DNA of 64,000 nucleotides. It comes from Nannocystis bainbridge (GTDB lineage: Bacteria; Myxococcota_A; Polyangia; Nannocystales; Nannocystaceae). The stretch covers positions 544,001 through 608,000 of the forward strand of contig NZ_JAQNDL010000001.1 in the NCBI RefSeq assembly GCF_028368995.1. Direction: 5' to 3'. The position numbers were made by a program, and so were the translations under genes. The notes under the pieces were generated by a model, which did not search any database, was not told the DNA's origin, and saw nothing but the letters and a program-made list of their open reading frames with translations. Positions 5,922 to 57,730 of the stretch are shown one piece after another; position 1 is the first letter of the stretch, and every line of letters begins with the position of its first letter.

Positions 5922-6356
5922 GTGGCGAATGCAAAGACCCCGCGGGTATGCCCGCCCGAGCTGCACGGCGCGCTCGACACTGGCCTCGTCGTCGCCCTGG
6001 CGCTGGCTCCGGCGGCCTTCCCGCCCGGGACCCCGCGCGTGGCCACGACCGCCTGTTACCTGCTCATGCTCGGGCTGTGGCTGCTGTCCCAGCTCACCTG
6101 TTATCCGTTCGGCTCCGCCTGCGTCATCCGCTACAGCGTGCACGGGATCCTCGAGGTCGCGCTGGCGCCGATCCTCATCGCCCTGCCCTGGCTGCTCGGC
6201 TTCGCCGACTCGCCCGTGGCGCTCGCCGTATTCGTGGCGGCGGGCGTCGCCACTTTGCTGCTGGGGCTGTCGGCGTGGGGTCGCCGCGACGAGCGCGAGG
6301 CTCCGCACCAGCCGCCGATCGATCGCGGGGCGCGGCCGCCACATCAGGGTGTTTGA
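5922..6356 (+). CDS. SPW-repeat-like membrane protein (diverged paralog of 5162-5602)
   Basis: Shares LHGALD, LTCYPFG, VHGILEVA and IALPWLLGF with the neighbouring gene. Confidence 0.7.
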   Translation: MANAKTPRVCPPELHGALDTGLVVALALAPAAFPPGTPRVATTACYLLMLGLWLLSQLTCYPFGSACVIRYSVHGILEVALAPILIALPWLLGFADSPVALAVFVAAGVATLLLGLSAWGRRDEREAPHQPPIDRGARPPHQGV

Positions 6357-39238: not shown

Positions 39239-40318
39239 TCAGAAGCGAATCATCAGCCCGTCCGTCGTCACCGCGATCCGCCGCTGGCCGACCGCGCGAC
39301 GACGCAGCCCGTAGTGGGCCGCCACCACCCCGAGCACGGCGAACGGCAGCGCCACGGCGAAGCCGATCAGGCTGCTCGTGCGCGCGTGCCTGGCCGCGTC
39401 CTCGCGCTCGAAGCGGGTCGGGTACGGCCGCTTGCCCGACTCGATCGCGTCGCCGCGGGCGATGAAGAAGAAACCGACGCCGAGCCCCGCCAGGGCCCCC
39501 ACCCCCGCCGCGCCGGCGACCGCGAGGTAACGACCGCTGGATTGCTGGACCTCGCGGCGCCACCCGTCCTCGCGCGCCTCGTCGGCCTCGCCGAGCTTGA
39601 CCTGCCGGGCGGCGCTGGCGGCCACGCCCTGCTGCGCGCGCTCGAGGTCGGCCTCGGCCGCGTCCACCGCCTGCGCCGCGGCGGTCGCCTCGCCGCGCAG
39701 CTTCACCACGGCGGGATCGATCGAGCTGTCCTTTTGGCCAGGTGTGGGCTTTGTCCCCGCCGGCACCGGGACCCACGGATCGGCGAGGCCCTCGTCGCGC
39801 AGCGCCGCCTCGACCGTGTCCCTGGCCGCCGCGCGCGGCTGGTCGCGCAAGGCTGTCTCGTGGTGCGTGCGGCGCAGCTTCAGCGCCGCCTTGCGGCACG
39901 GCTCGAGCCCGGCGAGCGCGGCGTCACGCGCAGGCTCGGACACGTAGGCGCCGAGCAGGCGCCGCAGCGCGGTCAGGCGCCCTGGTGCGAGGGTGCAGCC
40001 GACCGCGCCTGCGCGGGCCTCGGCGATCGCCGCCGTGTAGCGCTCGCCGTCGCCCTGCTGCGTCTCGGCGTCGGCGTCGGCCTCGCTCTCGGCGGCCCGC
40101 AACGCCTTTGCCGCCGCGACCTCGGCCTCCCTGGCCTTTTGGACAGCTTCGTGGGCCTGCCACTCGGCGGCCCGCAGCGCGCGGCCGGTCGCCTCCTCCT
40201 CGGCGTGCGCCTGCACGTCCTTGCCGGGCGGCGCCGGGGGGGCGAGGCGACACGCGCCGGCCGCGAGGGCCAGCGCCACCAGATGGGCTGAAATCGTGAG
40301 ACGTCGAGGGCGAGGCAT
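39239..40318 (-). CDS. Hypothetical lipoprotein with a coiled region and C-terminal TM pair
   Basis: Lipobox LAAGAC; Ala/Glu-rich helices; ends LMIRF. Confidence 0.65.
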   Translation of the reverse strand: MPRPRRLTISAHLVALALAAGACRLAPPAPPGKDVQAHAEEEATGRALRAAEWQAHEAVQKAREAEVAAAKALRAAESEADADAETQQGDGERYTAAIAEARAGAVGCTLAPGRLTALRRLLGAYVSEPARDAALAGLEPCRKAALKLRRTHHETALRDQPRAAARDTVEAALRDEGLADPWVPVPAGTKPTPGQKDSSIDPAVVKLRGEATAAAQAVDAAEADLERAQQGVAASAARQVKLGEADEAREDGWRREVQQSSGRYLAVAGAAGVGALAGLGVGFFFIARGDAIESGKRPYPTRFEREDAARHARTSSLIGFAVALPFAVLGVVAAHYGLRRRAVGQRRIAVTTDGLMIRF

Positions 40319-40439
40319 TCGCGGCGGCCGGAGTATTGCCCACTCCGGGGCCCCCCTCAAGCCGCGGGCCGCGTACGCCGGGGCCCGTGTCCCCTGCCCC
40401 GGCGCTCTGCGACGCGACGCGCCTCGCGTCGCGCCCACC

Positions 40440-41435
40440 TCACAGCGCCAGCAGGCCGCGCGCCGCGTCGAGCGCCAGCGGCTGGGCCCCGTAGCTGGCC
40501 GCGCCGACGCCCCAGCGCGCGAAGCCGGCGGGCTCCGGCGCCTCGTCGGTGGCTGCGCCATGGCTCCACCAGCCGGTCACGCTCAATCGCTTGCCGCGCG
40601 CGTACGGCGACACCGGCGTGACCGCGTGCACGGTCTCCGCCGCGACGTTGAACACGATCAGCGTGTTGAATGACGGCACCACCTGCGCGCCGCTCGGGCC
40701 CCACACGAACTGACCGCCCGAGGCCGCGTCCCAGTCGCGGGCGAGGTGCCACACGAACGCGACGGCGCGCGCCAGCTTGTGATCGGCGTGCGGCGCCGCG
40801 AAGTCGCCGGCGACGTAGCGCGTCGCCCCGAGCTCGAGCGGACCGCCGCAGTCGCGGCCCGACAGCGCCGCCGCGAGCTCGCGGCTGGCGGCGGCGCCGA
40901 ACAGCGCGCGGCTGGCCGCGATCGTCGGGCCGGCGGGGTCGGCCTCGTCGAGCACGTGGTGTCGATAATGCGGCGAGCTGCCGAACGCCTCGACGGCGCG
41001 CCAGCGGACGGCGGCGTCGAGGGCCGCGCCGACCCGCTCGGCGAGGTCGCGGCGCAGCGCGTCGCGGATGACCACGGCCCGCCCGGCGGCCAGCTGGGCG
41101 GCGATGTCGTCCTTGCGCGCCAGCGCGGCCGGGTCGAGCGCTTCGACCAGCGACGTCGGCCACGCCGCGGGCGCGACCGCGGGCGTGCGTTCGTCGACCA
41201 GCAACCCCTCGGCGACCAGGCCGGCGACCGTCGCCGCCAGCTCGGCAGGCGAGCCGAACTCGGCGAGCGTCGCGTGGGCCGCGGCGATCGTGCGCGGGCA
41301 GGCGAACGCGGCCAGCGTCTGGAACACCCGCGGCGCCAGCGAGAAGGCGCGCCGACCGACGAGCGCGACGACCGTCGCGTCAGGCCCGGGGCGAAACACG
41401 CACGCGGGCGCGAGGACATAGGACGACTCCGGCAT
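40440..41435 (-). CDS. 2OG-Fe(II) oxygenase with an N-terminal winged-helix (RRE/PqqD-like) domain
   Basis: YVAGDFAAPHAD (HxD), WDAASGGQF, HAVTPV, RLSVTGW. The N-terminal ~80 aa end in LVAEGLL. Confidence 0.85.
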   Translation of the reverse strand: MPESSYVLAPACVFRPGPDATVVALVGRRAFSLAPRVFQTLAAFACPRTIAAAHATLAEFGSPAELAATVAGLVAEGLLVDERTPAVAPAAWPTSLVEALDPAALARKDDIAAQLAAGRAVVIRDALRRDLAERVGAALDAAVRWRAVEAFGSSPHYRHHVLDEADPAGPTIAASRALFGAAASRELAAALSGRDCGGPLELGATRYVAGDFAAPHADHKLARAVAFVWHLARDWDAASGGQFVWGPSGAQVVPSFNTLIVFNVAAETVHAVTPVSPYARGKRLSVTGWWSHGAATDEAPEPAGFARWGVGAASYGAQPLALDAARGLLAL

Positions 41436-41525
41436 TGGCACCACCACTCAGCGCTCGTACCCGCGGCCGCGCCGTCGCGTCAAGCCGCAGCGCGCTCGAC
41501 CCGTCGCGGGCGAAATGAAGCATGT

Positions 41526-41542
41526 AAAAATCACGGATTTTT
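41526..41542. promoter_or_regulatory. AT-rich inverted repeat, candidate operator in the divergent promoter region
   Basis: AAAAATC-ACG-GATTTTT, a perfect 7-3-7 inverted repeat. Confidence 0.4.
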
Positions 41543-41737
41543 CGCTGCGACATCGCCGAGCACGCCCTGTCATCCCGACAGAGGCGCACGCACGGCATGT
41601 CCCGCCGCCACGCATTATCGAACATCCACGCGCACGATCGCCCGGGACCCGGGGACGAGGTGCCACGAATACGGAGCGTGTCCTTGTATTTCGACACAGG
41701 CAGCTCCGCGGACCCGAACACACAGGAGAGAAGCGAC

Positions 41738-41899
41738 ATGAAGGAGACGATTCAAGAGGTCGAGGGCGTGAAGGAGATCGATCCGGCCCACATCCACGAC
41801 CTGTTCCAGCTCGAGACCCTGGCCCCGCCGAGCGAGGCCAACGGCATGAGCTGCTGCGTGATCATCTGCCGGACCTGGACCCCGGGCCAGGCGGGCTGA
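41738..41899 (+). CDS. Putative RiPP precursor peptide (53 aa)
   Basis: AGGAG RBS; acidic leader followed by ...ANGMSCCVIICRTWTPGQAG; first gene of the oxygenase/DUF692 operon. Confidence 0.8.
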   Translation: MKETIQEVEGVKEIDPAHIHDLFQLETLAPPSEANGMSCCVIICRTWTPGQAG

Positions 41900-41925
41900 A
41901 CCAGGGCGCCCGCCACCACCACGCC

Positions 41926-42732
41926 ATGACGATTCCACCGGACAACTTGTCGGAGTATCGCGACCACGGCGCGACGGTGCTGCGCGGCGTCATCCCGGCG
42001 AGCTGGCAAGCCCGCCTGGAGGCGGCGATCGACCGGGTGCTCGCCGCGCCCGGCTCGATCGCCGTCGACTACACCCCGCCGGACCGACCCGGTCGCTTCT
42101 ATAACGATTTCTTCTTGTGGCTGCGCGAGCCCGAGTTCGCCGCGTTCGTGCGCGAGTCGCCGCTGCCCGCGCTGGCCGCGGAGCTGCTCGGCGCGGCGAA
42201 GGTCGGGTTCTTCTTCGACCAGCTGTTCGTCAAGGAGCCGCGCACCCAGGAGAGCATGCCGTGGCATCAAGACCTGCCGTACTGGCCGGTCGCGAGCGAC
42301 GCGCTGGTGACGATGTGGGTGCCGCTCGACGTCGTCACCCGCGAGAGCGGCGCGGTGGTCTACGCCCGCGGCTCGCACCGCTGGGGTCGCGTCGCCAAGC
42401 GCTGGCGGTTCGCCCGCGACGGCGCGACGGCCCCGCCCGAGACGGAGGAGATCCGCGAGGCGTCGTTCATGTACTGGGACCTGCGGCCCGGCGACGTGCT
42501 GGTCCACCACCCGCTGACGGTGCACGCGTCGGGCGGCAACGCGACGCCGGGGACCCGCCGCCGCGCGCTCGCGCTGCGCTACTTCGCCGACGGTTGCGTG
42601 TACCAGCCGCGCGAGGGCGACATCCTGCAGAACCCGCGCGTGCGCGAGCTGCTGCCTGACCTCGCCCTCGTCGCCGGCGAGCCGCTACGCGGCCCGGAAT
42701 TTCCGATCGTGTGGCCCCCGGAGGTCGCGTGA
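41926..42732 (+). CDS. PhyH-family Fe(II)/2OG dioxygenase
   Basis: FVKEP, PWHQD, WVPLD, GSHRW, TVHASGGN, RRALALRY. Confidence 0.92.
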   Translation: MTIPPDNLSEYRDHGATVLRGVIPASWQARLEAAIDRVLAAPGSIAVDYTPPDRPGRFYNDFFLWLREPEFAAFVRESPLPALAAELLGAAKVGFFFDQLFVKEPRTQESMPWHQDLPYWPVASDALVTMWVPLDVVTRESGAVVYARGSHRWGRVAKRWRFARDGATAPPETEEIREASFMYWDLRPGDVLVHHPLTVHASGGNATPGTRRRALALRYFADGCVYQPREGDILQNPRVRELLPDLALVAGEPLRGPEFPIVWPPEVA

Positions 42733-43556
42733 CGCCGCCGCCGCTGGTCGGCTTCGCCTATCGCCGGCAGTATCGCGCCGCGCTGTGCGAGGCGGCGCGC
42801 GGGCCCGACGTGCTCGAGCTGATGGCCGAGTCCTTCGACCCGCGCCTGCCCGGCCGGATCGACGACGTGCGAGCGCTGCGCGAGCGCTACGCGCTGATCG
42901 GGCACAGCGTCGGGCTGTCGATCGGCTCGGTCGAGCGCCCGCCGCAGGCCTACCTCGACGGGCTGGCGCGCTTCGTCGAGTTGGTCCAGCCGCGGGTCTA
43001 CAGCGACCACTTCGCCGTCACCTACGCCGGCGGGCGCGACCTCGGGCACCTGACGCCGATCTGGTACGGCGAGCAGGCGCTCGAGGTCGTCGTGAACAAC
43101 CTTACCGCGGCGCGGCGCTTGCTCGGCGTGCCGATCTGCCTCGAGCTCATCGCCGAGCCGTTCTCACTGCCCGGCGCGCAGTGGGACCAGGCCCGCTTCG
43201 CCGCCGAGGTGTGGCGCGCGTGCGGCTGCGGGATCCACCTCGACGTCACCAACGTCTTCATCAACGCCCGCAACTCGGGTCAGTGCCCGCGGGCCTCGAT
43301 CGCCGCGCTGCCGGCCGAGGCGGTGCAGATGATCCACGCCGTCGGCTTCGGCCGCTACGAGCACGGCGAGCTGGCCGACACCCACGACCAGGACATCCAG
43401 CAGGAGCTGTGGGACCTGCTCGCGTACACCTTCACGCGCGTGCGCCCGACCACCGCCGTCATCGAGCGCGACGCCAACTTCCCGCCGTACGAAGCGCTGC
43501 TGGCCGAGGTCGATCGCATGCGCTCGCTCGCCACGCCCCTGGAGGTCGCCTCGTGA
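42729..43556 (+). CDS. DUF692 / multinuclear non-heme iron oxidase (MbnB/TglH family)
   Basis: HSVGLSIG, SDH, LE, LDVTNVFIN, IHAVG, DTH, IERD; GTGA overlap with the upstream gene. Confidence 0.92.
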   Translation: MTPPPLVGFAYRRQYRAALCEAARGPDVLELMAESFDPRLPGRIDDVRALRERYALIGHSVGLSIGSVERPPQAYLDGLARFVELVQPRVYSDHFAVTYAGGRDLGHLTPIWYGEQALEVVVNNLTAARRLLGVPICLELIAEPFSLPGAQWDQARFAAEVWRACGCGIHLDVTNVFINARNSGQCPRASIAALPAEAVQMIHAVGFGRYEHGELADTHDQDIQQELWDLLAYTFTRVRPTTAVIERDANFPPYEALLAEVDRMRSLATPLEVAS

Positions 43557-45691
43557 CACCGCTGACCCTCTGCATGATCGTCAAGTTCCCGCCGATCCAG
43601 GGCGGCGTCAGCCAGCAGAGCTACTGGCTGGCGCACAACTTCGCGCGCGCCGGTCACCGCATCCACGTCGTCACCAACGCGCTCGAGGCCGCGTCCGACT
43701 ATCGCATGTTCCTGCCGGCGGCCGAGCGCCCGCACCTCGAGGGCGAGTACCCCGGCGGCGGGTTCGTCCGCCTGCACGCGAGCGACGAGGCCGGGCTCGA
43801 GGGCAACTACATCCCGTACGCCAACCCGTACGTCAGCAAGCTGGCGGCGCTGGCCCGCGACGTGGTCCGCGAGCACGCCTGCGATCTGATCTGGGCCGCG
43901 TACCTCGAGCCCTACGGGGTCGCGGCGGCGCTGGCGTCGAAGCTCACCGGGGTGCCCTACGCGGTCCGCCACGCCGGCAGCGACATCGCCGGGCTGGCGC
44001 AGCTGCCGGCGCGCCAGAACCTCTACCTCGACGTGCTCCGCCACGCGAGCCTGGTGGTCACCGCGCCGTTCCTGCGGCCGACGCTGGAGCGCGTCGGGGT
44101 CGCGCACGCGCACATGTTCGCGGTGCCGCTCGCCGCATACGCCAGCGCGGGCTTCGAGCCCGACGGGCCGAAGCTCGACGTCGAGGCATTGCTCGACGAG
44201 GCCGCGGGCGAGCGCGGGCCGTGGCCCCGGCCGGCCCGGCGCTTCGACCCCGCGCTGCCGACGTTCGGCATCTACGGCAAGGTCAGCGGCTACAAGGGCA
44301 TGTTCGAGGTCGTCGCCGCGCTCGGCGAGCTCGCGGCCCAAGGTCGCCGCTTCAATCTTTTGACGTTGGTCGGCGCGCGCGGGCCGGCGGTCACGGCCCT
44401 GCAGCAGGCGGTCGCGCAGGCCGGCATCGCCGAGTCGACGTACGCGCTGCCGTTCTTGCCGCACTGGATGGTGCCGCGGTTCATCCGCACGTGCACCGCC
44501 GTGTGTTTTTTGGAGAACCGGTTCCCGATCGCCATCCACACGCCGCAGGTCGGGTTCGAGATCCTCGCGTGCGGCCGCTGCCTGATCGTGTCCGAGGAGG
44601 TGCGATCGAAGACGCAGCGGCGCGCCGATCTGGTCGACGGGGTGCACGCGCTCGTGATCGACGATCCGGCCGACGCGGCGCAGGTGCGGCGGGCGCTGGC
44701 GCGGGTGCTCGACGACCCCGCCGAGGTGCGGGCGATCGGCGCGCGCGGGCGAGAGTTCGTGACCGGGCGGTTCGCCGCGCCGGACGTGTCGGCGGTGGTG
44801 AAGCGGCTGCGCCGCGTGATCGAGGAGGCAAACCCGATGTCCCTGGAGGGCCTGCAGCGGACCCTGAGCGAGCTCTACGCCGATCCGTCGCTGCGCGCCG
44901 CGCTGGCGGCGGGCGAGGAGGCTGGCCTGCACGGCCGCGACCTCGACGACCGCGAGCGCGCGGCGGTGCTGGAGCTGGGCCGGCGGCTGATGCCGCAGGT
45001 CGAGCGCTTCGGGCAGATGCTCGTGCACAAGCGGCTCGAGTATTTCCTCGAGCTGTTCGCCGCGACCGCGCCGCACCTGCGGGCGCACGAGCCGGCGCTG
45101 TTGGCTGCGTTCGCGCGCGAGTTCGATTTCCGCTGGCGCGCGCCGGCCGAGGACGTCGCGTACTTCGGCGAGTTCCTGCGCCGCCTGCTGGTCGCGCCGT
45201 GGCCGGCCCACGTGCGCGAGCTGGTGCGCTACGACGAATGCATGTGGCGGGCCGAGACGACCGACGACGACGCCGCGCCCGCGTTCGAGCGCCTGCTCGA
45301 GATGCAGATCACCGAGCCGCCCGGCCTCGGCGCGGCGCCGCTGAGCGCCGAGGACCGCGTCGCGCTCGCGCCCGGGGTGATCGTCGAGCGCTTCGCTCAC
45401 CCGGTGCACCGCCTGGCCGCGGAGGGCCCCGAGGCGCGGTTCGAGCCGGCCGCGACGGTGATCGTGTTCACGCCCCGGCGCGGAGCGACCGCCGCCCGCG
45501 CCCACGTGATGAACGAGGAGCTCGTCCGCCTGGCCACAGCCGCGGGCGACGGCCATCCGGTGGCGGCGCTGCTCGACGAGGCCGCGGCGCGTCACGCGGA
45601 GCGCCCGGCCGAGGCGGTGCGGCAAGCCGCCCTGCGCGCGCTGCAACGGCTCGGCGAGCGTCACGTGCTCGTGCGCGCGCCGCTGCGGTGA
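43553..45691 (+). CDS. GT4 glycosyltransferase fused to a C-terminal MNIO-partner-like domain
   Basis: FPPIQGGVS, GHRIHVVT, YKG, FEILACG. From MSLEGLQRTLSELYADP (44837) a helical partner-like region ends in a winged-helix-like segment. Confidence 0.85.
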   Translation: MTPLTLCMIVKFPPIQGGVSQQSYWLAHNFARAGHRIHVVTNALEAASDYRMFLPAAERPHLEGEYPGGGFVRLHASDEAGLEGNYIPYANPYVSKLAALARDVVREHACDLIWAAYLEPYGVAAALASKLTGVPYAVRHAGSDIAGLAQLPARQNLYLDVLRHASLVVTAPFLRPTLERVGVAHAHMFAVPLAAYASAGFEPDGPKLDVEALLDEAAGERGPWPRPARRFDPALPTFGIYGKVSGYKGMFEVVAALGELAAQGRRFNLLTLVGARGPAVTALQQAVAQAGIAESTYALPFLPHWMVPRFIRTCTAVCFLENRFPIAIHTPQVGFEILACGRCLIVSEEVRSKTQRRADLVDGVHALVIDDPADAAQVRRALARVLDDPAEVRAIGARGREFVTGRFAAPDVSAVVKRLRRVIEEANPMSLEGLQRTLSELYADPSLRAALAAGEEAGLHGRDLDDRERAAVLELGRRLMPQVERFGQMLVHKRLEYFLELFAATAPHLRAHEPALLAAFAREFDFRWRAPAEDVAYFGEFLRRLLVAPWPAHVRELVRYDECMWRAETTDDDAAPAFERLLEMQITEPPGLGAAPLSAEDRVALAPGVIVERFAHPVHRLAAEGPEARFEPAATVIVFTPRRGATAARAHVMNEELVRLATAAGDGHPVAALLDEAAARHAERPAEAVRQAALRALQRLGERHVLVRAPLR

Positions 45692-45882
45692 CTGCCATGA
45701 TCGCCCGAGTCACTCGGCGAGCACCACATCGTGCGCCGTTGCAGTGACTGCCGTGATCGTCCGTATCACTCGGCGAGCGTCACGGGATCGTGCGCGCCGC
45801 TGCTGTGACTGCCGTGATCGTCCGTATCACTCGGCGAGCGTCACGTGATCGTGCGCGCGCCGCTGCAGTGACTGCTGTGATT
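45650..45882 (+). repeat. About 4 degenerate ~60-bp tandem repeats that include the 3' end of the GT gene
   Basis: CTCGGCGAGC...GTGACTGC units start at 45650, 45713, 45769 and 45830. Confidence 0.85.
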
Positions 45883-45918
45883 CGCTGCGAGCCCGGTCGA
45901 CTACGATCGGGCGCTCGA

Positions 45919-48507
45919 TCAGGGCAAAATCTCGACGTACCCATCCGTCCCGTGCACGCGGATCCGCTGCCCGTCGCGGATCCGCCGGGTCGCCTGGTCC
46001 ACGCCGACGACGGCCGGCAGGCCGTACTCGCGGGCGATCACGGCCCCATGCGTCATCAAGCCCCCCACCTCCGTCACCAGCCCGGCGATGGCGACGAACA
46101 GCGGCGTCCAGCTCGGGTCGGTGTACGCGGTGACGAGGATGTCGCCCGCCTCGAGATCGGCCCGCGCCATGTCGAGCACGACGCGGGCCCGCCCCTCGAT
46201 CGTGCCGGCGGACACCGGCAAGCCGACCAGCGCGCCGGCCGGCAATCCGTCGGATCGGTACGCCCCGGCGACGACCTCGCCGTCCGAGGTGAGCACGCGC
46301 GGCGGCGTGAGCGAATGATAGGACTCGAAGGCTTCTCTGCGCTGGCGGAGCAGCGCCGCGTCGACGTGATGCGTGCGCACGACGTCGAGGAGCTCCGGCA
46401 ACGTGAGGTAGTCGATGTCGTCCAGCGCCCGCAGCACGCCGGCCTGCACCAGGCGCCCGGCTTCTTCCACCAGCGCCTGCTTGTAGACGAAGAAGCGGCA
46501 GATCATGCCGTACTTCGGGTACTCCCGGTAGCCGATGAAGGTGCGCACGCGATCGATCTGCCGCCGGGTCTCCTCGGCCTTGCGCTCCCCGTCCGGCAGG
46601 GCCCGCAGGCGCTCCTGCAGCTCCTGCGATCGCTTCAGCGCCTCCTGCCGCCCTCGCTCGAAGCGCCGCGCGCCGGCGCCCGGCCCCAGGTTCTTGATGT
46701 TGCCCAGGAGCACCGGCACGAGCATGCCGGGGCGTTCGCTCCACCGCGGCCGCGTGATGTCGATCTCGCCGGCGCAGCGCATGCCGTACGCGTCGAGGTA
46801 GGCGACGATGGCGTCCCGCGCCTCCGGCCCGCCCGGGAGCGTGGCCAGCCCGGCCAGGAAATCGTCGTGCTCGACGCGCTGGAGAAACGCCACCACCTCC
46901 GGATACGGGCGAATGACGTCGGCGACGTCGAGCAGCGCCAGCCCCATCTCCGAGGTGACGTTGTCGGCGACGGACTGCGTGAGGATGTCGGCGGCGCTCT
47001 TCTCGCCAAGCCACGCGTGAAGCTGCTCGTTGAGCCACCAGGTGGCCTCGAACGCGGCCATGAGCACGCGATGGCCCTGCGGATCGAACAACCGCCGCTT
47101 CAGCTCGGGGATGTCGGCGAGGATGCACTCGAGCAGCGCCGCGCCGGTCTTGCCGTGGATGTCGCGCTTCAGGGCGGCGATGGAGGCCTGGTTGCGCTCG
47201 ATCAACCCGGCGACGATGGCGGGGTCGGTGTCGATCGGGGCCGGCGCGCCACCAGCCGGCGCCGCGGCGGGCGGTGGGTCCGGGAGCGCGCGGATGAAAT
47301 CACCGCGCTCCCAGATCGACCGCAGGGCGTCGCGGATCCGCGGGTCGGAGCGGCCGAAGACCTCGAGGAGCTTGGCCCGGCTCGTCGGCGCGGCGAGGCC
47401 CCGCGTGACCTCGACGAACAACCTCCCGCCCGCCTCGTGCATGGGCCCGGCCGCAGCGAGGCGAAACAGCGAAAGCCCCAGCGGCTTCATCGGGTCGGTC
47501 ATCATCTGCTGGTGGCCGACCGAGACGTAGACGTGGTTGTCGCCGTCGCCCGCCTCGGGGATGGGAAACAGGGTGGTGATCGGCCGGCTCTGCACGATCG
47601 AAAATTCGTCGTCGACCAGGCACCACTCGATGTCCTGCGGGCGGCCAAAATGCGCCTCGATCTGCCGGCCGAGCTGCGCGAGCCGTAGCACCTGCGCGTC
47701 GGTCAGCGCCGGCTGCCGCTGCCGCTCGGGCGCGACCGCCTGCGCCTGCGTCCCGCCGACCGGCGCGGCGACGACGGCGAACTGCTTGCAGGCGATCGTC
47801 CTGGTGACGATATCGCCGCCCAACACCTTGAAGATGTCCGGGTTCACCAGGCCGGAGACCTGGGCCTCGCCGAGGCCGAAGCTGGCCTCGACGGAGACGA
47901 CCTTGCGGTGCGACGTGACGGGGTCGGCCGTGAACAGGACGCCGGCGGCCTGCGGGAAGACCATGCGCTGCACGACCACGGCCATGCCGACCTTGCGGTG
48001 ATCGAAGCCGTTGCGCTGGCGGTAGACCACGGCCCGCTCGCTGAACAGCGAGGCCCAGCAGCGACGGACGTGCGCCACGATCGCCGCCGGCCCGACGATG
48101 TTGAGGTACGTGTCCTGCTGGCCGGCGAAGGAGGCCGTCGGCAGGTCCTCCGCGGTCGCGCTCGAGCGGACGGCGTACGCCTCGCGCTCGCCGAGCCGAA
48201 CCACCGCGCCGGTGATCGCGGTTGCCAGCTCGTCCGGGATGGTGATGGCTTCCACGATCGCGTGGATCTCCGCCGCGAGCGCCCGAATCGCCGCGCGATC
48301 GTCCGGCTGCAAGCGCGCCAGCCGGGCCAGTGACTCGGCGATCGAGGGCGCCACGACCCGCTGAAACGCCGCCGTCGTCACGCAGAAGCCGGCGGGCACG
48401 CGCACGCCTTCGAGCCGCGACAGCTCCCCCAGATGCGCGCCCTTGCCGCCGACAACCGCGACCTGCGTCCGATCGATCTCCTCGAAATTCACCACGTAGT
48501 GGCCCAT
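45919..48507 (-). CDS. rph: Rifamycin-inactivating phosphotransferase
   Basis: 862 aa; GGKGAHLGEL, RSSATAEDLPTASFAGQQDT, YVSVGHQQMMTDPMKPLG, GYREYPKY; C-terminal swivel domain THGAVIAREYG. Confidence 0.92.
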   Translation of the reverse strand: MGHYVVNFEEIDRTQVAVVGGKGAHLGELSRLEGVRVPAGFCVTTAAFQRVVAPSIAESLARLARLQPDDRAAIRALAAEIHAIVEAITIPDELATAITGAVVRLGEREAYAVRSSATAEDLPTASFAGQQDTYLNIVGPAAIVAHVRRCWASLFSERAVVYRQRNGFDHRKVGMAVVVQRMVFPQAAGVLFTADPVTSHRKVVSVEASFGLGEAQVSGLVNPDIFKVLGGDIVTRTIACKQFAVVAAPVGGTQAQAVAPERQRQPALTDAQVLRLAQLGRQIEAHFGRPQDIEWCLVDDEFSIVQSRPITTLFPIPEAGDGDNHVYVSVGHQQMMTDPMKPLGLSLFRLAAAGPMHEAGGRLFVEVTRGLAAPTSRAKLLEVFGRSDPRIRDALRSIWERGDFIRALPDPPPAAAPAGGAPAPIDTDPAIVAGLIERNQASIAALKRDIHGKTGAALLECILADIPELKRRLFDPQGHRVLMAAFEATWWLNEQLHAWLGEKSAADILTQSVADNVTSEMGLALLDVADVIRPYPEVVAFLQRVEHDDFLAGLATLPGGPEARDAIVAYLDAYGMRCAGEIDITRPRWSERPGMLVPVLLGNIKNLGPGAGARRFERGRQEALKRSQELQERLRALPDGERKAEETRRQIDRVRTFIGYREYPKYGMICRFFVYKQALVEEAGRLVQAGVLRALDDIDYLTLPELLDVVRTHHVDAALLRQRREAFESYHSLTPPRVLTSDGEVVAGAYRSDGLPAGALVGLPVSAGTIEGRARVVLDMARADLEAGDILVTAYTDPSWTPLFVAIAGLVTEVGGLMTHGAVIAREYGLPAVVGVDQATRRIRDGQRIRVHGTDGYVEILP

Positions 48508-48718
48508 CCGCGCACTCCCTTCGCAAAAGGAGCGAGAGCATAACGCGGCTAGCGAGGCAGTCCACCCCCATTCGCGCTGGCGCTTTGTGACAGTGCGAAG
48601 ATCGGCGGAGGCCCGAAAGGGCGCCCCGGCGCGGCCACGAAGCGCTACACTTGCGGTGGAAGAAGCGAGGAGAGGCGAGTTCGGGCCGCTCGACCCGCGT
48701 CGCCTCGCCGGCTCCCGA

Positions 48719-49384
48719 TCAGCTCGCGGCATTCGCCGGCGGCGCGTCGAATCGATAGGGGGTGCGCTGCGCCGAAGGTCGCGCGGCGAACTCCTGCGCG
48801 AACCGGACCAGCGCGGGGTACGGCTGCAGCGGCAGCGTGGCCCGGAACGTCAGGTGATCGACGAGGCAGTACAGCGAGGCCTCGAACAGGCTCAGCTCGC
48901 GCGACGCGGGCAACGACTCCAGCACCCGCGCGAGGTGCTCGTCGAGCCAGGCGAGCGCGCCCGCGAAGCCCTCGCGCGCCTTGACGAAGTAGAGGTTGTC
49001 GGCCGGCAGCTGCGCGACCACGGTGCCGAAGATCAGCTGCACCTGCGCGGCCATGGCGTGCCGCACCAGCTCGTGGGCGTTGCGCGCCAGATCGCTGCCC
49101 AGCTGCTCCGGCCAGACGACGCGCCGCGGCGGGTCCGCGAGCTCGGCGAGGGCCCGGCAGATGTTCTCGGCCCCGAACACCGGCGAGCCGCCGCGTCGCA
49201 AGATCGGCAGCTTCAGGGCCGGGTTGCCGGCGTAGATCGCCGGATCGGTCTCGGTCATGTCGTGGACCGGCACGAGCTCGAACGACACGCCGAGCTCGTG
49301 GGCGAAGATCAGGGCCAGTCGTGTGAAATGCGAGCTGCTCCGGCCGACGATCTGAACGCGATCCGCGGTGTCATGATGTCCCAT
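48719..49384 (-). CDS. Glutathione S-transferase-like protein
   Basis: GRSSSHFTR, NPALKLPIL, ICRAL. Confidence 0.85.
   Translation of the reverse strand: MGHHDTADRVQIVGRSSSHFTRLALIFAHELGVSFELVPVHDMTETDPAIYAGNPALKLPILRRGGSPVFGAENICRALAELADPPRRVVWPEQLGSDLARNAHELVRHAMAAQVQLIFGTVVAQLPADNLYFVKAREGFAGALAWLDEHLARVLESLPASRELSLFEASLYCLVDHLTFRATLPLQPYPALVRFAQEFAARPSAQRTPYRFDAPPANAAS

Positions 49385-54826: not shown

Positions 54827-57730
<2,904 letters not shown>

Follow-up and report, generated by a model that had tools for sequence, protein, structure and literature searches.

Closest described systems

By HMM, the MNIO (DUF692) families nearest to the enzyme described here are BufB, HvfB and FonB of the captophorins, bufferins and oxazolin, which work with partners of PME-type 1 and convert cysteine to 5-thiooxazole, a reaction that removes 4 Da per cysteine. 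According to PMC13097082 (in part), the thiooxazole absorbs at about 305 nm, known substrates are of the Lys-Cys, Cys-Lys or DUF2282 type, the proposed catalytic base is FonB-D249, and classes that form thiooxazole have Phe or Asp directly after the ERD aspartate.

TglHI (pearlin / 3-thiaglutamate) is a PME-type 2 system with a signal-peptide-less substrate, and the lack of a signal peptide in the precursor correlates with a PME-type 2 partner (PMC12452194, in part). ApyHI (aminopyruvatide) has a leader-type precursor and several metalloenzymes per cluster (10.1101/2023.10.30.564719, in part). Fusions of a peptide-binding RRE to a glycosyltransferase were reported by RRE-Finder for PF00535, a GT2 family (PMC12710340, in part). 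For MysH, the Fe/2OG dioxygenase of mycosporine-like amino acid biosynthesis, alpha-hydroxylation of a glycyl moiety has been proposed, which then breaks up into an amine and glyoxylate (PMC10666671, in part).

A five-gene island in Nannocystis

The window is a stretch of 64,000 nucleotides from Nannocystis bainbridge. Positions 40440-45691 are confirmed as a real, self-contained five-gene RiPP island, which is wider than the span given in a preliminary description of this DNA. Its features are as follows.

40440..41447, minus strand: 335-aa protein with an RRE-like domain (about residues 9-85) and an OGFOD1/Tpa1-like 2OG-Fe(II) oxygenase (PF13661, PF13640, OGFOD1)
41448..41737, no strand: divergent intergenic region, 290 nt, with the precursor RBS AGGAGA at its 3′ end
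41738..41899, plus strand: precursor gene, 53 aa, ATG at 41738, TGA ending at 41899
41792..41839, plus strand: predicted leader recognition segment, residues 19-34, with the invariant LFQLETL (three-chain model and invariant columns)
41846..41896, plus strand: predicted core, residues 37-53, with x-S-C-C-V-I-I-C and then a variable tail (conservation pattern)
41926..42732, plus strand: PhyH-type Fe(II)/2OG dioxygenase, 268 aa, MysH-like (PF05721, 2.5e-34)
42729..43556, plus strand: MNIO (DUF692) peptide maturase, 275 aa (PF05114; start overlaps the PhyH stop, GTGA)
43553..44836, plus strand: GT4-type glycosyltransferase domain, residues 1 to about 428 of a 712-aa fusion (PF00534, PF13524)
44837..45691, plus strand: predicted MNIO partner domain, "PME-type 2", residues about 429-712 of the fusion (AF2/Foldseek, weak NCBIfam)

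All sequence features named in the preliminary description were found where it had placed them. It proposed a RiPP operon in which PhyH, MNIO and GT4 tailor a Cys-containing precursor encoded at its head, and protein families and conservation agree with this; however, the fifth, divergent gene (40440-41447) and the partner fused to the glycosyltransferase had been missed. The GTGA overlaps said to couple the enzyme genes at 42729 and 43553 were both read in the sequence. The operon had been described as free of protease and exporter genes, and neither these nor an immunity gene occur inside the conserved block.

DNA homology to three related loci (L001, L003 and L002) starts at 40440, which is the stop codon of the divergent 2OG gene, and ends at 45688, 45702 and 45512, respectively. 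L001 and L003 have common flanks, while L002 and the window have only the block in common. Four neighbouring genes of the window were tested (an aminotransferase, a 440-aa ORF, a PEP-utilising protein and a GST), and none has a real counterpart in the compared loci. The intergenic region can be aligned among the Nannocystis copies and presumably carries promoters for both directions. A sigma-70 scan of this region gave no promoter-like site, with 0.0 in shuffles, though DNA this rich in G+C is not expected to show any; Rfam had no match at E <= 0.1.

The best explanation of the whole, to which we assign a probability of about 0.7, is a five-gene RiPP island of a Nannocystis-like myxobacterium acting by the mechanism proposed below. 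Most likely, the five genes turn a small Cys-containing peptide into an oxidised, hydroxylated, sugar-bearing natural product.

With captophorins, bufferins and oxazolin the island shares a Cys-containing precursor, a helical partner with RRE and a conserved ERD aspartate. It differs from these systems in an MNIO that stays under their equivalog cut-offs, in a partner that lacks the DUF2063 signature of Pfam and forms one protein with a GT4 domain, and in a precursor with a classical acidic leader in place of a Sec signal peptide. DUF2282, EGKCG/Cys-Lys repeats and DoxX are all missing, and the island adds a PhyH protein, an RRE-2OG oxygenase, a glycosyltransferase and, in its relatives, a methyltransferase. 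The partner domain finds its closest structural match in TglI, and TglH is also matched by the MNIO, but the island has no PEARL/LanB-like gene and BufB/HvfB are by far the nearer relatives of its MNIO. The target of ApyH is Asp, while it is Cys that is conserved here, and the island has neither a P450 nor a B12-radical SAM enzyme. As in the RRE-Finder fusions, RRE and glycosyltransferase reside on one polypeptide; the glycosyltransferase is, however, of GT4 type (PF00534), and the fused module would be an entire MNIO partner, with a helical domain beside the RRE, instead of an RRE alone (PMC12710340, in part).

The preliminary description had not recognised the combination of precursor, PhyH, MNIO and GT4 from characterised pathways, and no description of it was found in full-text literature searches. 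In the available part of the MNIO landscape paper the terms "glycosyl", "PhyH" and "Myxococc" do not occur. The island is an MNIO RiPP locus whose enzyme arrangement, as far as these searches show, has not been described.

The precursor family

The 53-aa ORF with its RBS, which had been noticed before, starts 8 nt downstream of AGGAGA. The peptide is acidic at its N-terminus, lacks a signal peptide and belongs to no family in Pfam or NCBIfam. The 11 aligned precursor sequences (44-79% identity to the window peptide) have 12 invariant columns: G10, L22, F23, L25, E26, T27, L28, G36, S38, C39, I42 and C44. The border between leader and core is probably located directly after Gly36. The motif of the family is S-C-(C/V)-x-I-x-C, i.e. 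C-x4-C with a middle Cys that is usually present, and replaces the CCxxxC suggested earlier. The language-model look-alikes of the precursor are lantibiotic-type precursors (0.81-0.83), which is under the level where the tool considers a match more than a lead.

The precursor family is very rare. It has seven copies over four genomes, one in the window and two each in L001, L002 and L003, and a profile of these seven retrieved eight proteins at E <= 0.01 (among 1501 candidates drawn from 5.8 billion database proteins); beyond the four genomes, there are four further database sequences. Conservation of the small ORF beside homologous enzymes had been proposed as a check, and the ORF does precede PhyH, MNIO and GT genes in three Nannocystaceae genomes. 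Of the four loci found with the MNIO, three have this ORF in the same gene order. Changes of length at the N- and C-terminus leave the reading frame intact. Summed over all pairs, the codons of a 31-codon block differ synonymously in 42 cases and non-synonymously in 108, with the 108 lying mainly in the variable part of the leader; taken alone, this comparison is no demonstration of purifying selection.

The MNIO enzyme and its likely chemistry

The MNIO matches PF05114 with an E-value of 4.5e-64 (216.7 bits, cut-off 25). H94, E139, D172, N175, H203, D217, H219 and E246 align to the corresponding residues of MbnB (7TCR), which from the MbnB structure papers we take to be metal ligands; the earlier statement that the DUF692 protein has its metal ligands is in line with this. 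H59 aligns to a His of 3BWW. The residues at the ligand positions and the ERD motif are conserved. In the PDB, the best match by sequence is 3BWW (2.5e-21), followed by MbnB (9.3e-14) and TglH (1.4e-11), and 3BWW has been placed among the MNIO-PME1 loci, i.e. in the group of the captophorins, bufferins and oxazolin (PMC13097082, in part). Among NCBIfam models the enzyme scores 181 bits with BufB (2.5e-53, cut-off 310), 147.9 bits with HvfB (4e-43, cut-off 360), 77.3 bits with ApyH (cut-off 400), 45.8 bits with MbnB and 28.1 bits with ChrH. By these scores it appears nearest to the thiooxazole formers BufB and HvfB, yet it stays under both equivalog cut-offs.

These low scores, a partner lacking the DUF2063 signature and a hydrophobic core make a different MNIO reaction quite possible. 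With the same cluster and precursor, the enzyme might produce an oxazolone-thioamide as does MbnB or a thioether/imidazolidinedione-type macrocycle as does ChrH, excise a beta-carbon as does TglH, or act on a residue other than Cys, like ApyH and the ortho-Tyr and homocitrulline MNIOs. Such a reaction would go along with the PME-type 2 partner, a type found in the TglI, ApyI and PbsC systems with other chemistry (PMC12452194, in part), and with a core that resembles no known thiooxazole substrate. Moreover, the ERD aspartate is followed by Ala or Gly and not by Phe or Asp (PMC13097082, in part; the position was matched via the 3BWW and not the FonB alignment, and its equivalence is inferred). 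However, the enzyme is much closer to BufB and HvfB than to ApyH, MbnB or ChrH, the only obvious conserved nucleophiles of the core are the two invariant Cys and Ser38, and the precursor does not end with Cys as TglA does. We consider a product other than thiooxazoles less likely and favour thiooxazole formation.

A glycosyltransferase fused to the MNIO partner

The gene at 43553-45691 had been described as a GT4. This applies to its first domain, which matches PF00534 (7.1e-8, 32.6 bits, cut-off 26.4) and PF13524 (1.2e-6), with weak scores under the cut-offs for N-terminal Pfam models of GT4 type. A profile of nine fusions matches the GT4 structures 5I45 (4.2e-8), 4XSO and 6KIH, and the GT domain has 85 invariant columns across these nine, including the GxYGK..KG motif and E336. 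It had been overlooked that the protein is a fusion of 712 aa, the last ca. 285 residues of which would be the MNIO partner. Among plasmid-borne proteins, those most closely related to the GT domain occur in non-MNIO clusters.

The partner domain consists of a helical, DUF2063-like part and a C-terminal RRE from about residue 602 (window position ca. 45356). Its AF2 model (pLDDT 83.0, pTM 0.73) gave 265 Foldseek matches, only three of them at E <= 0.001: TglI 8HI7_A (1.6e-5, TM 0.58/0.65), 8HCI_A (1e-4) and NGO1945 3DEE (3.8e-4). By sequence, HvfC (7.5e-5) and PqqD_rel_X (5e-4) from NCBIfam are matched under their cut-offs, Pfam DUF2063 is not matched, and transitive links lead to ApyI, HvfC, PqqD and NGO1945_C. 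Half of the 12 relatives (E <= 0.001; 1.84 billion representatives) have the GT4-plus-partner architecture of ca. 700 aa; P0012-14, P0019 and P0021 are such fusions other than that of the window. Five of the 12 are stand-alone proteins (228-299 aa) which start exactly at the "MSL" of the partner domain; one of these, P0016, matches the ApyI model (2.2e-10) and HvfC (1.7e-7). Sequence links and models together support that the MNIO has its required partner in the C-terminal part of the glycosyltransferase protein, and that this partner is of PME-type 2 with an RRE. Together with the signal-peptide-less precursor this fits the correlation in PMC12452194 (in part).

Docking of the leader

In a three-chain model, the invariant LFQLETL of the leader is placed on the RRE of the GT C-terminal domain. 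The ipSAE is 0.67, versus 0.00 for the best of three controls; 58 of 80 solved complexes attain this mark, as do 2 of 110 mismatched pairs, counts that hold only roughly because own alignments and three chains were used. Contact agreement between runs is at least 38%, and pLDDT is at least 47 for the partner and only 48-52 for the precursor itself. Precursor residues 19-34 (19-20, 22-28, 30-34) contact the strand and helices of the RRE, which correspond to residues 247-260 and 281-303 of the fusion domain; the errors expected for these contacts are 0.8-1.5 A. The contacting residues coincide with the invariant leader columns. The result may mirror what the predictor had learned from solved complexes of an RRE with a leader, for example TbiB1-TbiA and MbnABC, which are both among the Foldseek matches of the partner domain.

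It is very improbable that there is no RiPP locus at all, with a fortuitous small ORF and with GT, PhyH and MNIO acting on a small molecule or polysaccharide. The precursor has no described family, its look-alikes do not exceed the level of leads and the plasmid-borne GT relatives lie in non-MNIO clusters, all of which such a reading would accommodate. It would leave unexplained that the ORF is conserved in four genomes and four more database sequences with an invariant 12-residue pattern, that two island proteins have peptide-binding RRE folds, that in the model precisely the invariant residues of the leader contact the RRE, with controls at 0.00, and that PF05114 is a peptide-maturase family.

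Two oxygenases

The PhyH-type 2OG dioxygenase of the preliminary description was recovered with PF05721 (E 2.5e-34). Its best solved relative is MysH (9C9N; 3.2e-40, 141.6 bits, over residues 3-231), and the metal-binding WHxD motif and distal His match up. Unlike for MysH, the substrate is presumably a peptide and not a mycosporine, and no mys genes are nearby.

The 2OG gene at 40440..41447 is transcribed divergently from the precursor. Homologues adjoin the operon in L001, L002 and L003 (53-87% identity), and by this synteny the gene belongs to the island. The protein matches PF13661 (1.9e-13) and PF13640 (7.8e-12) and, in the PDB, OGFOD1 4NHX (8.4e-6); H220, D222, H274 and R287 are invariant in eight homologues. 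Its catalytic half resembles the OGFOD1/Tpa1 ribosomal prolyl hydroxylases (Foldseek to Tpa1, 6.5e-3). Overall confidence in the AF2 model is low (pLDDT 58.6), but residues 9-85 score 70-88 and follow the order strand-strand-strand(-strand)-helix-helix-helix. This part superposes on RREs of RiPP tailoring enzymes, namely MccB, PqqD, PbtF, TbiB1 and lasso B1 (rmsd 2.3-3.4 A, 81-87 columns), at Foldseek E-values of 0.02-0.14, with no match at E <= 0.001 and none by HMM. Given the low-confidence model and the weak E-values, we call the domain RRE-like. A fusion of an RRE to an oxygenase of OGFOD1/Tpa1 type was not found in the literature looked at.

Proposed pathway

We infer every chemical step as follows. 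The RRE of the GT-partner fusion would capture the leader as an added beta-strand, while the helical part docks the MNIO. The MNIO would then oxidise the invariant C39 and C44, and probably C40, most likely to 5-thiooxazoles as do its nearest characterised relatives BufB, HvfB and FonB. The GT4 domain of the same polypeptide may glycosylate the tethered core, with the invariant Ser38, a hydroxylated residue or a Cys as candidates. The MysH-like PhyH and the RRE-2OG oxygenase would add hydroxyl groups, candidate targets of the latter being the near-invariant Pro30/Pro31. The product would thus be MNIO-modified, hydroxylated and glycosylated. The relatives would also methylate, a step lost in this genome. 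Leader removal and export may depend on functions encoded elsewhere or on an oxidative route.

Variation and decay

The relatives have two precursor genes and a SAM methyltransferase, whereas the window has one precursor and no methyltransferase. In L003, a 665-bp deletion has taken out two thirds of the MNIO gene together with 40 codons at the start of the GT gene. The L001 methyltransferase is frameshifted by a 2-bp deletion, which could be an assembly error since it is located in a GC-repeat. The deletion in L003, the frameshift in L001 and the two losses in the window make the pathway look dispensable.

The island might thus be a decaying or silent remnant, and this genome might form no mature product. 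Two of the four Nannocystaceae copies are damaged, the block has no export, protease or immunity gene and the family is extremely rare. We nevertheless consider decay in the window unlikely and prefer a functional island: the damage in L001 may not be real, all five window ORFs are full-length with intact catalytic motifs, and the methyltransferase was lost by a clean, exact in-frame junction across which both GTGA start/stop couplings are retained. The cluster is 84-90% identical to L001 at the DNA level and has no frameshifts.

Gene content and borders of the island

The island occupies positions 40440-45691 of the window and consists of an oxygenase gene and, divergent from it, an operon of four genes:

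40440-41447, minus strand, 335-aa 2OG-Fe(II) oxygenase (PF13661, 1.9e-13)
41738-41899, plus strand, 53-aa putative precursor peptide
41926-42732, plus strand, PhyH-type oxygenase (PF05721, 2.5e-34)
42729-43556, plus strand, MNIO enzyme (PF05114, formerly DUF692; 4.5e-64)
43553-45691, plus strand, 712-aa fusion of a predicted glycosyltransferase (PF00534, 7.1e-8) with a C-terminal partner domain

The trio of PhyH, DUF692 and GT4 genes proposed in the preliminary description is thus borne out, and both GTGA overlaps reported there are present in the sequence. When the MNIO was used as query against species-representative genomes, 73 pattern matches were obtained, 4 of which encode a relative. 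Three are from Nannocystaceae: Nannocystis pusilla Na p29 (L001, 93% identity), Nannocystis sp. RBIL2 (L003, 92%, over a truncated gene) and Nannocystaceae bacterium ST9 (L002, 67%). DNA similarity to these three loci starts with the stop codon of the divergent gene (40440) and ends at 45688 (L001), 45702 (L003) and 45512 (L002), at or just before the stop codon of the 712-aa gene. Flanking DNA is common to L001 and L003; L002 and the window have the block alone in common, and the neighbours in the window (an aminotransferase, a 440-aa ORF, a 937-aa PPDK_N/PEP-utilising protein and a GST) have no real counterpart at the relatives' loci. From the sharp borders and the unrelated flanks we infer that 40440-45691, self-contained and 5.3 kb in size, is the functional unit, which has been found in three distinct genomic settings. 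Neither a protease nor a transporter nor an immunity gene lies inside 40440-45691, so that the lack of a protease and an exporter, noted previously for the operon, extends to the whole conserved block.

With its relatives in the Nannocystaceae and a G+C content of 70%, the window most likely stems from a Nannocystis-like myxobacterium. The G+C content of the island (73.4%) is higher than that of the whole window (70.1%). This difference and the abrupt ends of homology in three contexts may mean that the island has been transferred as a cassette. The window shows no mobility gene next to it.

The fourth relative, from a deltaproteobacterial MAG (L004), is an unrelated MNIO (39%). This locus was rejected as an instance of the same system as it has neither glycosyltransferase, PhyH nor a related precursor and adjoins a long ORF with a Ser/Gly/Cys-rich tail; it was left out of the synteny counts and retained as one row of the MNIO alignment. 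At L004:4049-7225, the MNIO follows a 617-aa ORF with a C-terminal Ser/Gly/Cys run and is itself followed by a 175-aa ORF, an arrangement resembling the TIGR04222-type systems of PMC12452194.

A conserved family of precursor peptides

The 53-aa ORF with a ribosome-binding site, from which the preliminary description started, is confirmed by an ATG at 41738, a TGA at 41899 and the motif AGGAGA 8 nt upstream. It is also conserved beside homologous enzymes, with small ORFs found upstream in all four Nannocystaceae copies; there are two precursor genes in tandem in the relatives and one in the window. A profile of 7 copies retrieved 8 proteins at E <= 0.01 (from 1501 candidates in 5.8 billion sequences), half of which (4 of 8) are additional sequences of 49-58 aa. 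The 11 aligned precursors are 44-79% identical to the peptide from the window. Twelve positions are invariant in all of them (G10, L22, F23, L25, E26, T27, L28, G36, S38, C39, I42 and C44) and seven more are conserved in at least 90% (E13, P30, P31, E33, N35, C40 and V41). The peptides start with an acidic N-terminus of variable sequence, followed by the leader motif LFxLETL and a spacer whose last residue is Gly. Next comes the core x-S-C-(C/V)-x-I-x-C, with Ser, Val and Ile as neighbours of the Cys, and then a variable tail in which Trp, Lys and Pro are frequent. Four of the 11 precursors end in Gly. By eye, the peptide has no signal peptide, the acidic N-terminus being devoid of a hydrophobic h-region, and no Pfam or NCBIfam family matches it.

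The reading frame is preserved through indels at both ends. Codon differences counted over all pairs in a 31-codon block (42 synonymous versus 108 non-synonymous) are not decisive with respect to selection at this small ORF. A weak precursor-like tblastn match (55416-55481, E 0.25) was discarded, being located inside a 989-aa ORF and missed by the profile. Look-alikes in the ESM Atlas are lantibiotic-type precursors and DUF6229 proteins at 0.81-0.83, a level reached by shuffled proteins one-third of the time.

The MNIO enzyme and its likely chemistry

The MNIO matches PF05114 with 216.7 bits (cut-off 25) over profile positions 2-261 of 263. Conservation of the metal ligands of the DUF692 protein, claimed previously, was corroborated: alignments with 3BWW and with MbnB (7TCR) show H59, H94, E139, D172, N175, H203, D217, H219 and E246 at the ligand positions of MbnB, and all nine are invariant in the 4 MNIOs. 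We take these nine positions, by the MbnB structures, to be iron ligands. In the NCBIfam ranking, BufB comes first (181 bits), followed by HvfB (147.9), ApyH (77.3), MbnB (45.8) and ChrH (28.1); all scores are below the cut-offs, so that equivalog status is missed for BufB (310), HvfB (360) and MbnB (325).

The closest solved relative is 3BWW. According to PMC13097082, this structure belongs to the group of BufB, HvfB and FonB, which convert Cys to 5-thiooxazole, and D249 of FonB has been proposed to act as catalytic base. The island MNIO has retained the Asp of the ERD motif. At the next position the island MNIO family has Ala or Gly, and the Lys-Cys and Cys-Lys classes of PMC13097082 have Phe or Asp; the correspondence of these positions to FonB is derived through the 3BWW alignment. 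As the enzyme is nearest to BufB/HvfB and 3BWW and has the ERD Asp, formation of thiooxazoles at C39 and C44, perhaps also at C40, is the favoured prediction, at roughly even odds. The type of its partner (PME-type 2, see below), the scores below the BufB and HvfB thresholds and the hydrophobic core leave considerable scope for a different chemistry performed by the MNIO.

A partner domain fused to a glycosyltransferase

Pfam accounts for residues ~17-413 alone of the 712-aa fusion protein. The C-terminal Rossmann domain of the glycosyltransferase scores 32.6 bits against PF00534 (cut-off 26.4). The glycosyltransferase domain by itself has no sequence match in the PDB at E <= 0.01; a profile of 9 fusions matches the GT4 structures 5I45 and 4XSO. 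By these sequence matches the domain is a divergent GT4, a predicted glycosyltransferase. Over the 9 fusions, 85 columns of this domain are invariant, which speaks for catalysis as its conserved role and against a mere scaffold function. Plasmid-borne relatives of the domain (5 records, 27-37% identity) were set aside as uninformative for this cluster; in the two contexts inspected, from Agrobacterium and Bacillus mycoides, there is no MNIO.

For the C-terminal part, covering window positions 44837-45691, NCBIfam gave two weak matches, to HvfC (7.5e-5; 22.7 bits versus a cut-off of 142) and to a PqqD-type chaperone (5e-4), and PF09836 (DUF2063) gave none in the fusion at E <= 0.01. Among 1.84 billion representatives, searched exhaustively, phmmer found 12 relatives of this domain at E <= 0.001. 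Half of these (P0011-14, P0019, P0021) are proteins of ~700 aa that share the GT4 N-terminus. Another 5 occur as stand-alone proteins (228-299 aa), and the remaining one, a repeat protein of 548 aa, is dubious. The stand-alone relatives start exactly where the domain starts in the fusions, with a conserved MSL. One relative, P0016, matches ApyI (2.2e-10), HvfC (1.7e-7) and PqqD, and another, P0021, matches HvfC (4.8e-9), Pfam PqqD (1.9e-6) and NGO1945_C. A word-indexed search of proteins of 391-1246 aa yielded 3 with the partner domain at E <= 0.001 (that of the window, that of N. pusilla and one more). In the ESM Atlas, two clusters of GT4 proteins of 610-676 aa (75 and 84 members, mainly Pseudomonadota) were found with a score of 0.98, which is a lead that the GT4-partner architecture is more widespread.

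Sequence comparison of the domain with the PDB gave no match (best E 0.29), and fold comparison alone worked. In the AlphaFold2 model (14-row alignment; pLDDT 83.0, pTM 0.73), the N-terminal half is helical and the C-terminal module is made up of strands and helices. Foldseek returned 265 PDB matches at E <= 10, of which 3 are at E <= 0.001: TglI (8HI7_A, 1.6e-5, and 8HCI_A, 1e-4) and NGO1945 (3DEE, 3.8e-4). These are followed by PqqD and the lasso peptide RRE TbiB1. To judge from the model, the partner protein of the MNIO is the C-terminal domain of the glycosyltransferase fusion encoded by the next gene. As described in PMC12452194, PME-type 2 proteins are structurally like NGO1945/TglI, are devoid of the DUF2063 signature and are linked to substrates without a signal peptide; a 276-residue example from Plesiocystis pacifica is displayed there as a model. 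With no DUF2063 signature and a likeness to DUF2063 proteins that is structural only, the modelled partner domain is assigned to PME-type 2.

Nine of 11 scanned relatives of the partner domain (P0012, P0014-P0021) match models of NHLP-type RiPP leaders with their first ~60 residues (NF038399, the Os1348 family, and in 2 cases also Pfam Frankia_peptide; E 2e-11 to 3e-3). The domain of the window itself does not reach E <= 0.1 against NF038399. By sequence, the helical head of the relatives' domains resembles a leader-peptide fold.

Docking of the precursor was modelled in one prediction of three chains, in which the precursor was the chain scored, alongside the MNIO and the partner domain (residues 27-312 of the domain query). 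The ipSAE was 0.66-0.69 (median 0.67), compared to 0.00 for the best of 3 controls. The mark applied is attained by 58 of 80 solved complexes and by 2 of 110 mismatched pairs; both counts are approximate for a prediction based on custom alignments and three chains. Between runs, at least 38% of the contacts agree, with a partner pLDDT of at least 47. Confident contacts connect precursor residues 19-20, 22-28 and 30-34 with domain residues 247-260 and 281-303, and the contacted segments are the RRE strand 249-253 and the helices 255-264 and 286-302. This predicted docking is of the canonical RRE type, and the leader residues involved are precisely the invariant ones. As RRE-leader complexes and MbnABC have already been solved, we take this as likeness rather than proof of binding. 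Residue 13 is the only one of the MNIO in confident contacts, so that the model says little on the route of the core to the iron site.

Oxygenases and methyltransferase

The divergent 2OG oxygenase has a relative in the ribosomal prolyl hydroxylase OGFOD1 (8.4e-6), and its residues H220, D222, H274 and R287 are invariant in 8 homologues. Its gene accompanies the operon in L001, L002 and L003, and there is a hint that a homologue (P0025) and a precursor (P0006), both assigned to contigs 6702 in length, are linked in a fourth lineage. The first ~85 residues match no HMM. In a model with a mean pLDDT of 58.6, they reach 70-88 and form four short strands followed by three helices. Foldseek aligns this N-terminus over ~85 columns with the RREs of MccB, TruD, TigE, PqqD, PbtF and TbiB1 (rmsd 2.3-3.4 A) at E-values of 0.008-0.14, none being <= 0.001. 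From this model, an RRE at the N-terminus of the oxygenase is probable, not established.

The closest solved relative of the PhyH protein is MysH (3.2e-40), and the WHxD and distal His motifs are aligned. In the relatives, a class I SAM methyltransferase (Methyltransf_25, ~4e-18) is encoded between PhyH and the MNIO. This gene of ~780 bp is present in L001-L003 and missing from the window (42700-42775), where the methyltransferase start region is joined in frame to the N-terminal codons of the MNIO with the GTGA coupling kept.

Gene loss and integrity

Several copies have suffered losses. In L003, a deletion of 665 bp (6255-6300, corresponding to window positions 43015-43680) has removed MNIO residues ~97-275 together with residues 1-40 of the glycosyltransferase, and the RBIL2 copy, judged by these missing parts, is therefore probably dead. 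In L001 (5430-5510), a 2-bp deletion within a GC-repeat, as compared with L003, splits the methyltransferase into two frames; the frameshift may be real or due to an error of the assembly. The window has neither the methyltransferase nor one of the precursors, and ST9 is the only copy among those compared with the full intact gene set. These lesions and losses would fit an island that is a decaying or silent remnant. Nevertheless, the five genes in the window are intact, for which reason we rate this explanation as unlikely.

Comparison with known systems

What was found for the island is a PF05114 match of high score, the ligand positions, an adjoining partner and a conserved precursor with C39 and C44. 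Captophorins and bufferins, which are 5-thiooxazole metallophores, derive from precursors that mostly carry a Sec signal and belong to the DUF2282, Lys-Cys repeat or Cys-Lys types, none of which the island precursor matches; their partner is of PME-type 1 with the DUF2063 signature, whereas that of the island is of PME-type 2. Pearlins (TglHI) have a C-terminal Cys, either added to the scaffold peptide or already part of it, and a PEARL enzyme; however, none of the 11 precursors of the island family ends in Cys, and Pfam revealed no LanB/PEARL-like protein among the five island proteins. With regard to methanobactins (MbnABC), MbnC chains rank only 25-27 in the Foldseek search with the partner domain (E 0.76-0.80).

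The enzyme combination had not been recognised from characterised pathways, and indeed no description of it was found in the full-text papers searched. The same holds for any MNIO cluster with a glycosyltransferase or PhyH (subscription journals being outside the coverage) and for Nannocystis together with MNIO. In the MNIO papers searched, the term glycosyltransferase appears at most once, within a reference; in the main text of PMC12452194, glycosyl, PhyH, dioxygenase, methyltransferase and Myxococc have 0 occurrences. Fusions of an RRE with a glycosyltransferase are reported, for PF00535, in PMC12710340. We conclude that the island represents an uncharacterised MNIO RiPP family with a new precursor family, a GT4-partner fusion and an unusual set of oxygenases.

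As a possible mechanism, one leader-binding scaffold would feed the hydrophobic C-x4-C core to a multi-iron oxidase and a sugar transferase. For MysH, alpha-hydroxylation of a glycyl group followed by hydrolysis has been proposed (PMC10666671). By analogy, the MysH-like PhyH might alpha-hydroxylate the invariant Gly36 before the core, or a C-terminal Gly, whereupon the backbone would fragment spontaneously. Such PhyH-driven removal of the leader would explain why no protease is present in a block conserved over three contexts. That the island stands for a new RiPP class, with the partner welded to a GT4, a C-x4-C core and leader removal perhaps free of a protease via PhyH, is a long shot.

More than 13,500 MNIO clusters have been catalogued, few of which are characterised (PMC12257519), and the unprecedented peptide chemistry that MNIO enzymes provide is under active study. 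Several features of the island were not met with in the papers searched. The partner-glycosyltransferase fusion implies an assembly in which oxidation and glycosylation would be physically coupled, and offers a probe of MNIO activation by partners. The hydrophobic Cys core is unlike known thiooxazole substrates, so that a BufB-like enzyme would form either the same heterocycle or new chemistry on it. Two different RRE-bearing enzymes, one of the RREs being probable, would compete for one leader or share it. The family provides a natural experiment, with and without methyltransferase and with one versus two precursors, and the small self-contained cluster is suited to heterologous expression.

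Flanking genes and regulatory signals

The 440-aa ORF (39239-40561, minus strand) has no Pfam family and no conserved counterpart next to the island in the relatives; if its first start codon is used, ~120 nt of it overlap with the 3' end of the 2OG oxygenase gene. The 937-aa protein (45919-48732, minus strand), with PPDK_N and PEP-utilising mobile domains, is encoded tail-to-tail with the glycosyltransferase gene. A Bacillus mycoides plasmid cluster with a distant relative of the glycosyltransferase domain also has a "PEP/pyruvate-binding domain-containing protein". This is probably a coincidence, as the gene does not adjoin the island in L001-L003.

A promoter scan gave 0 promoter-like sites, and no RNA family from Rfam was detected in window positions 39500-46500. 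Three terminator-like hairpins with T-runs are all located inside the glycosyltransferase fusion gene (44486-44506, 45106-45119), with 1.1 expected in shuffled sequences.
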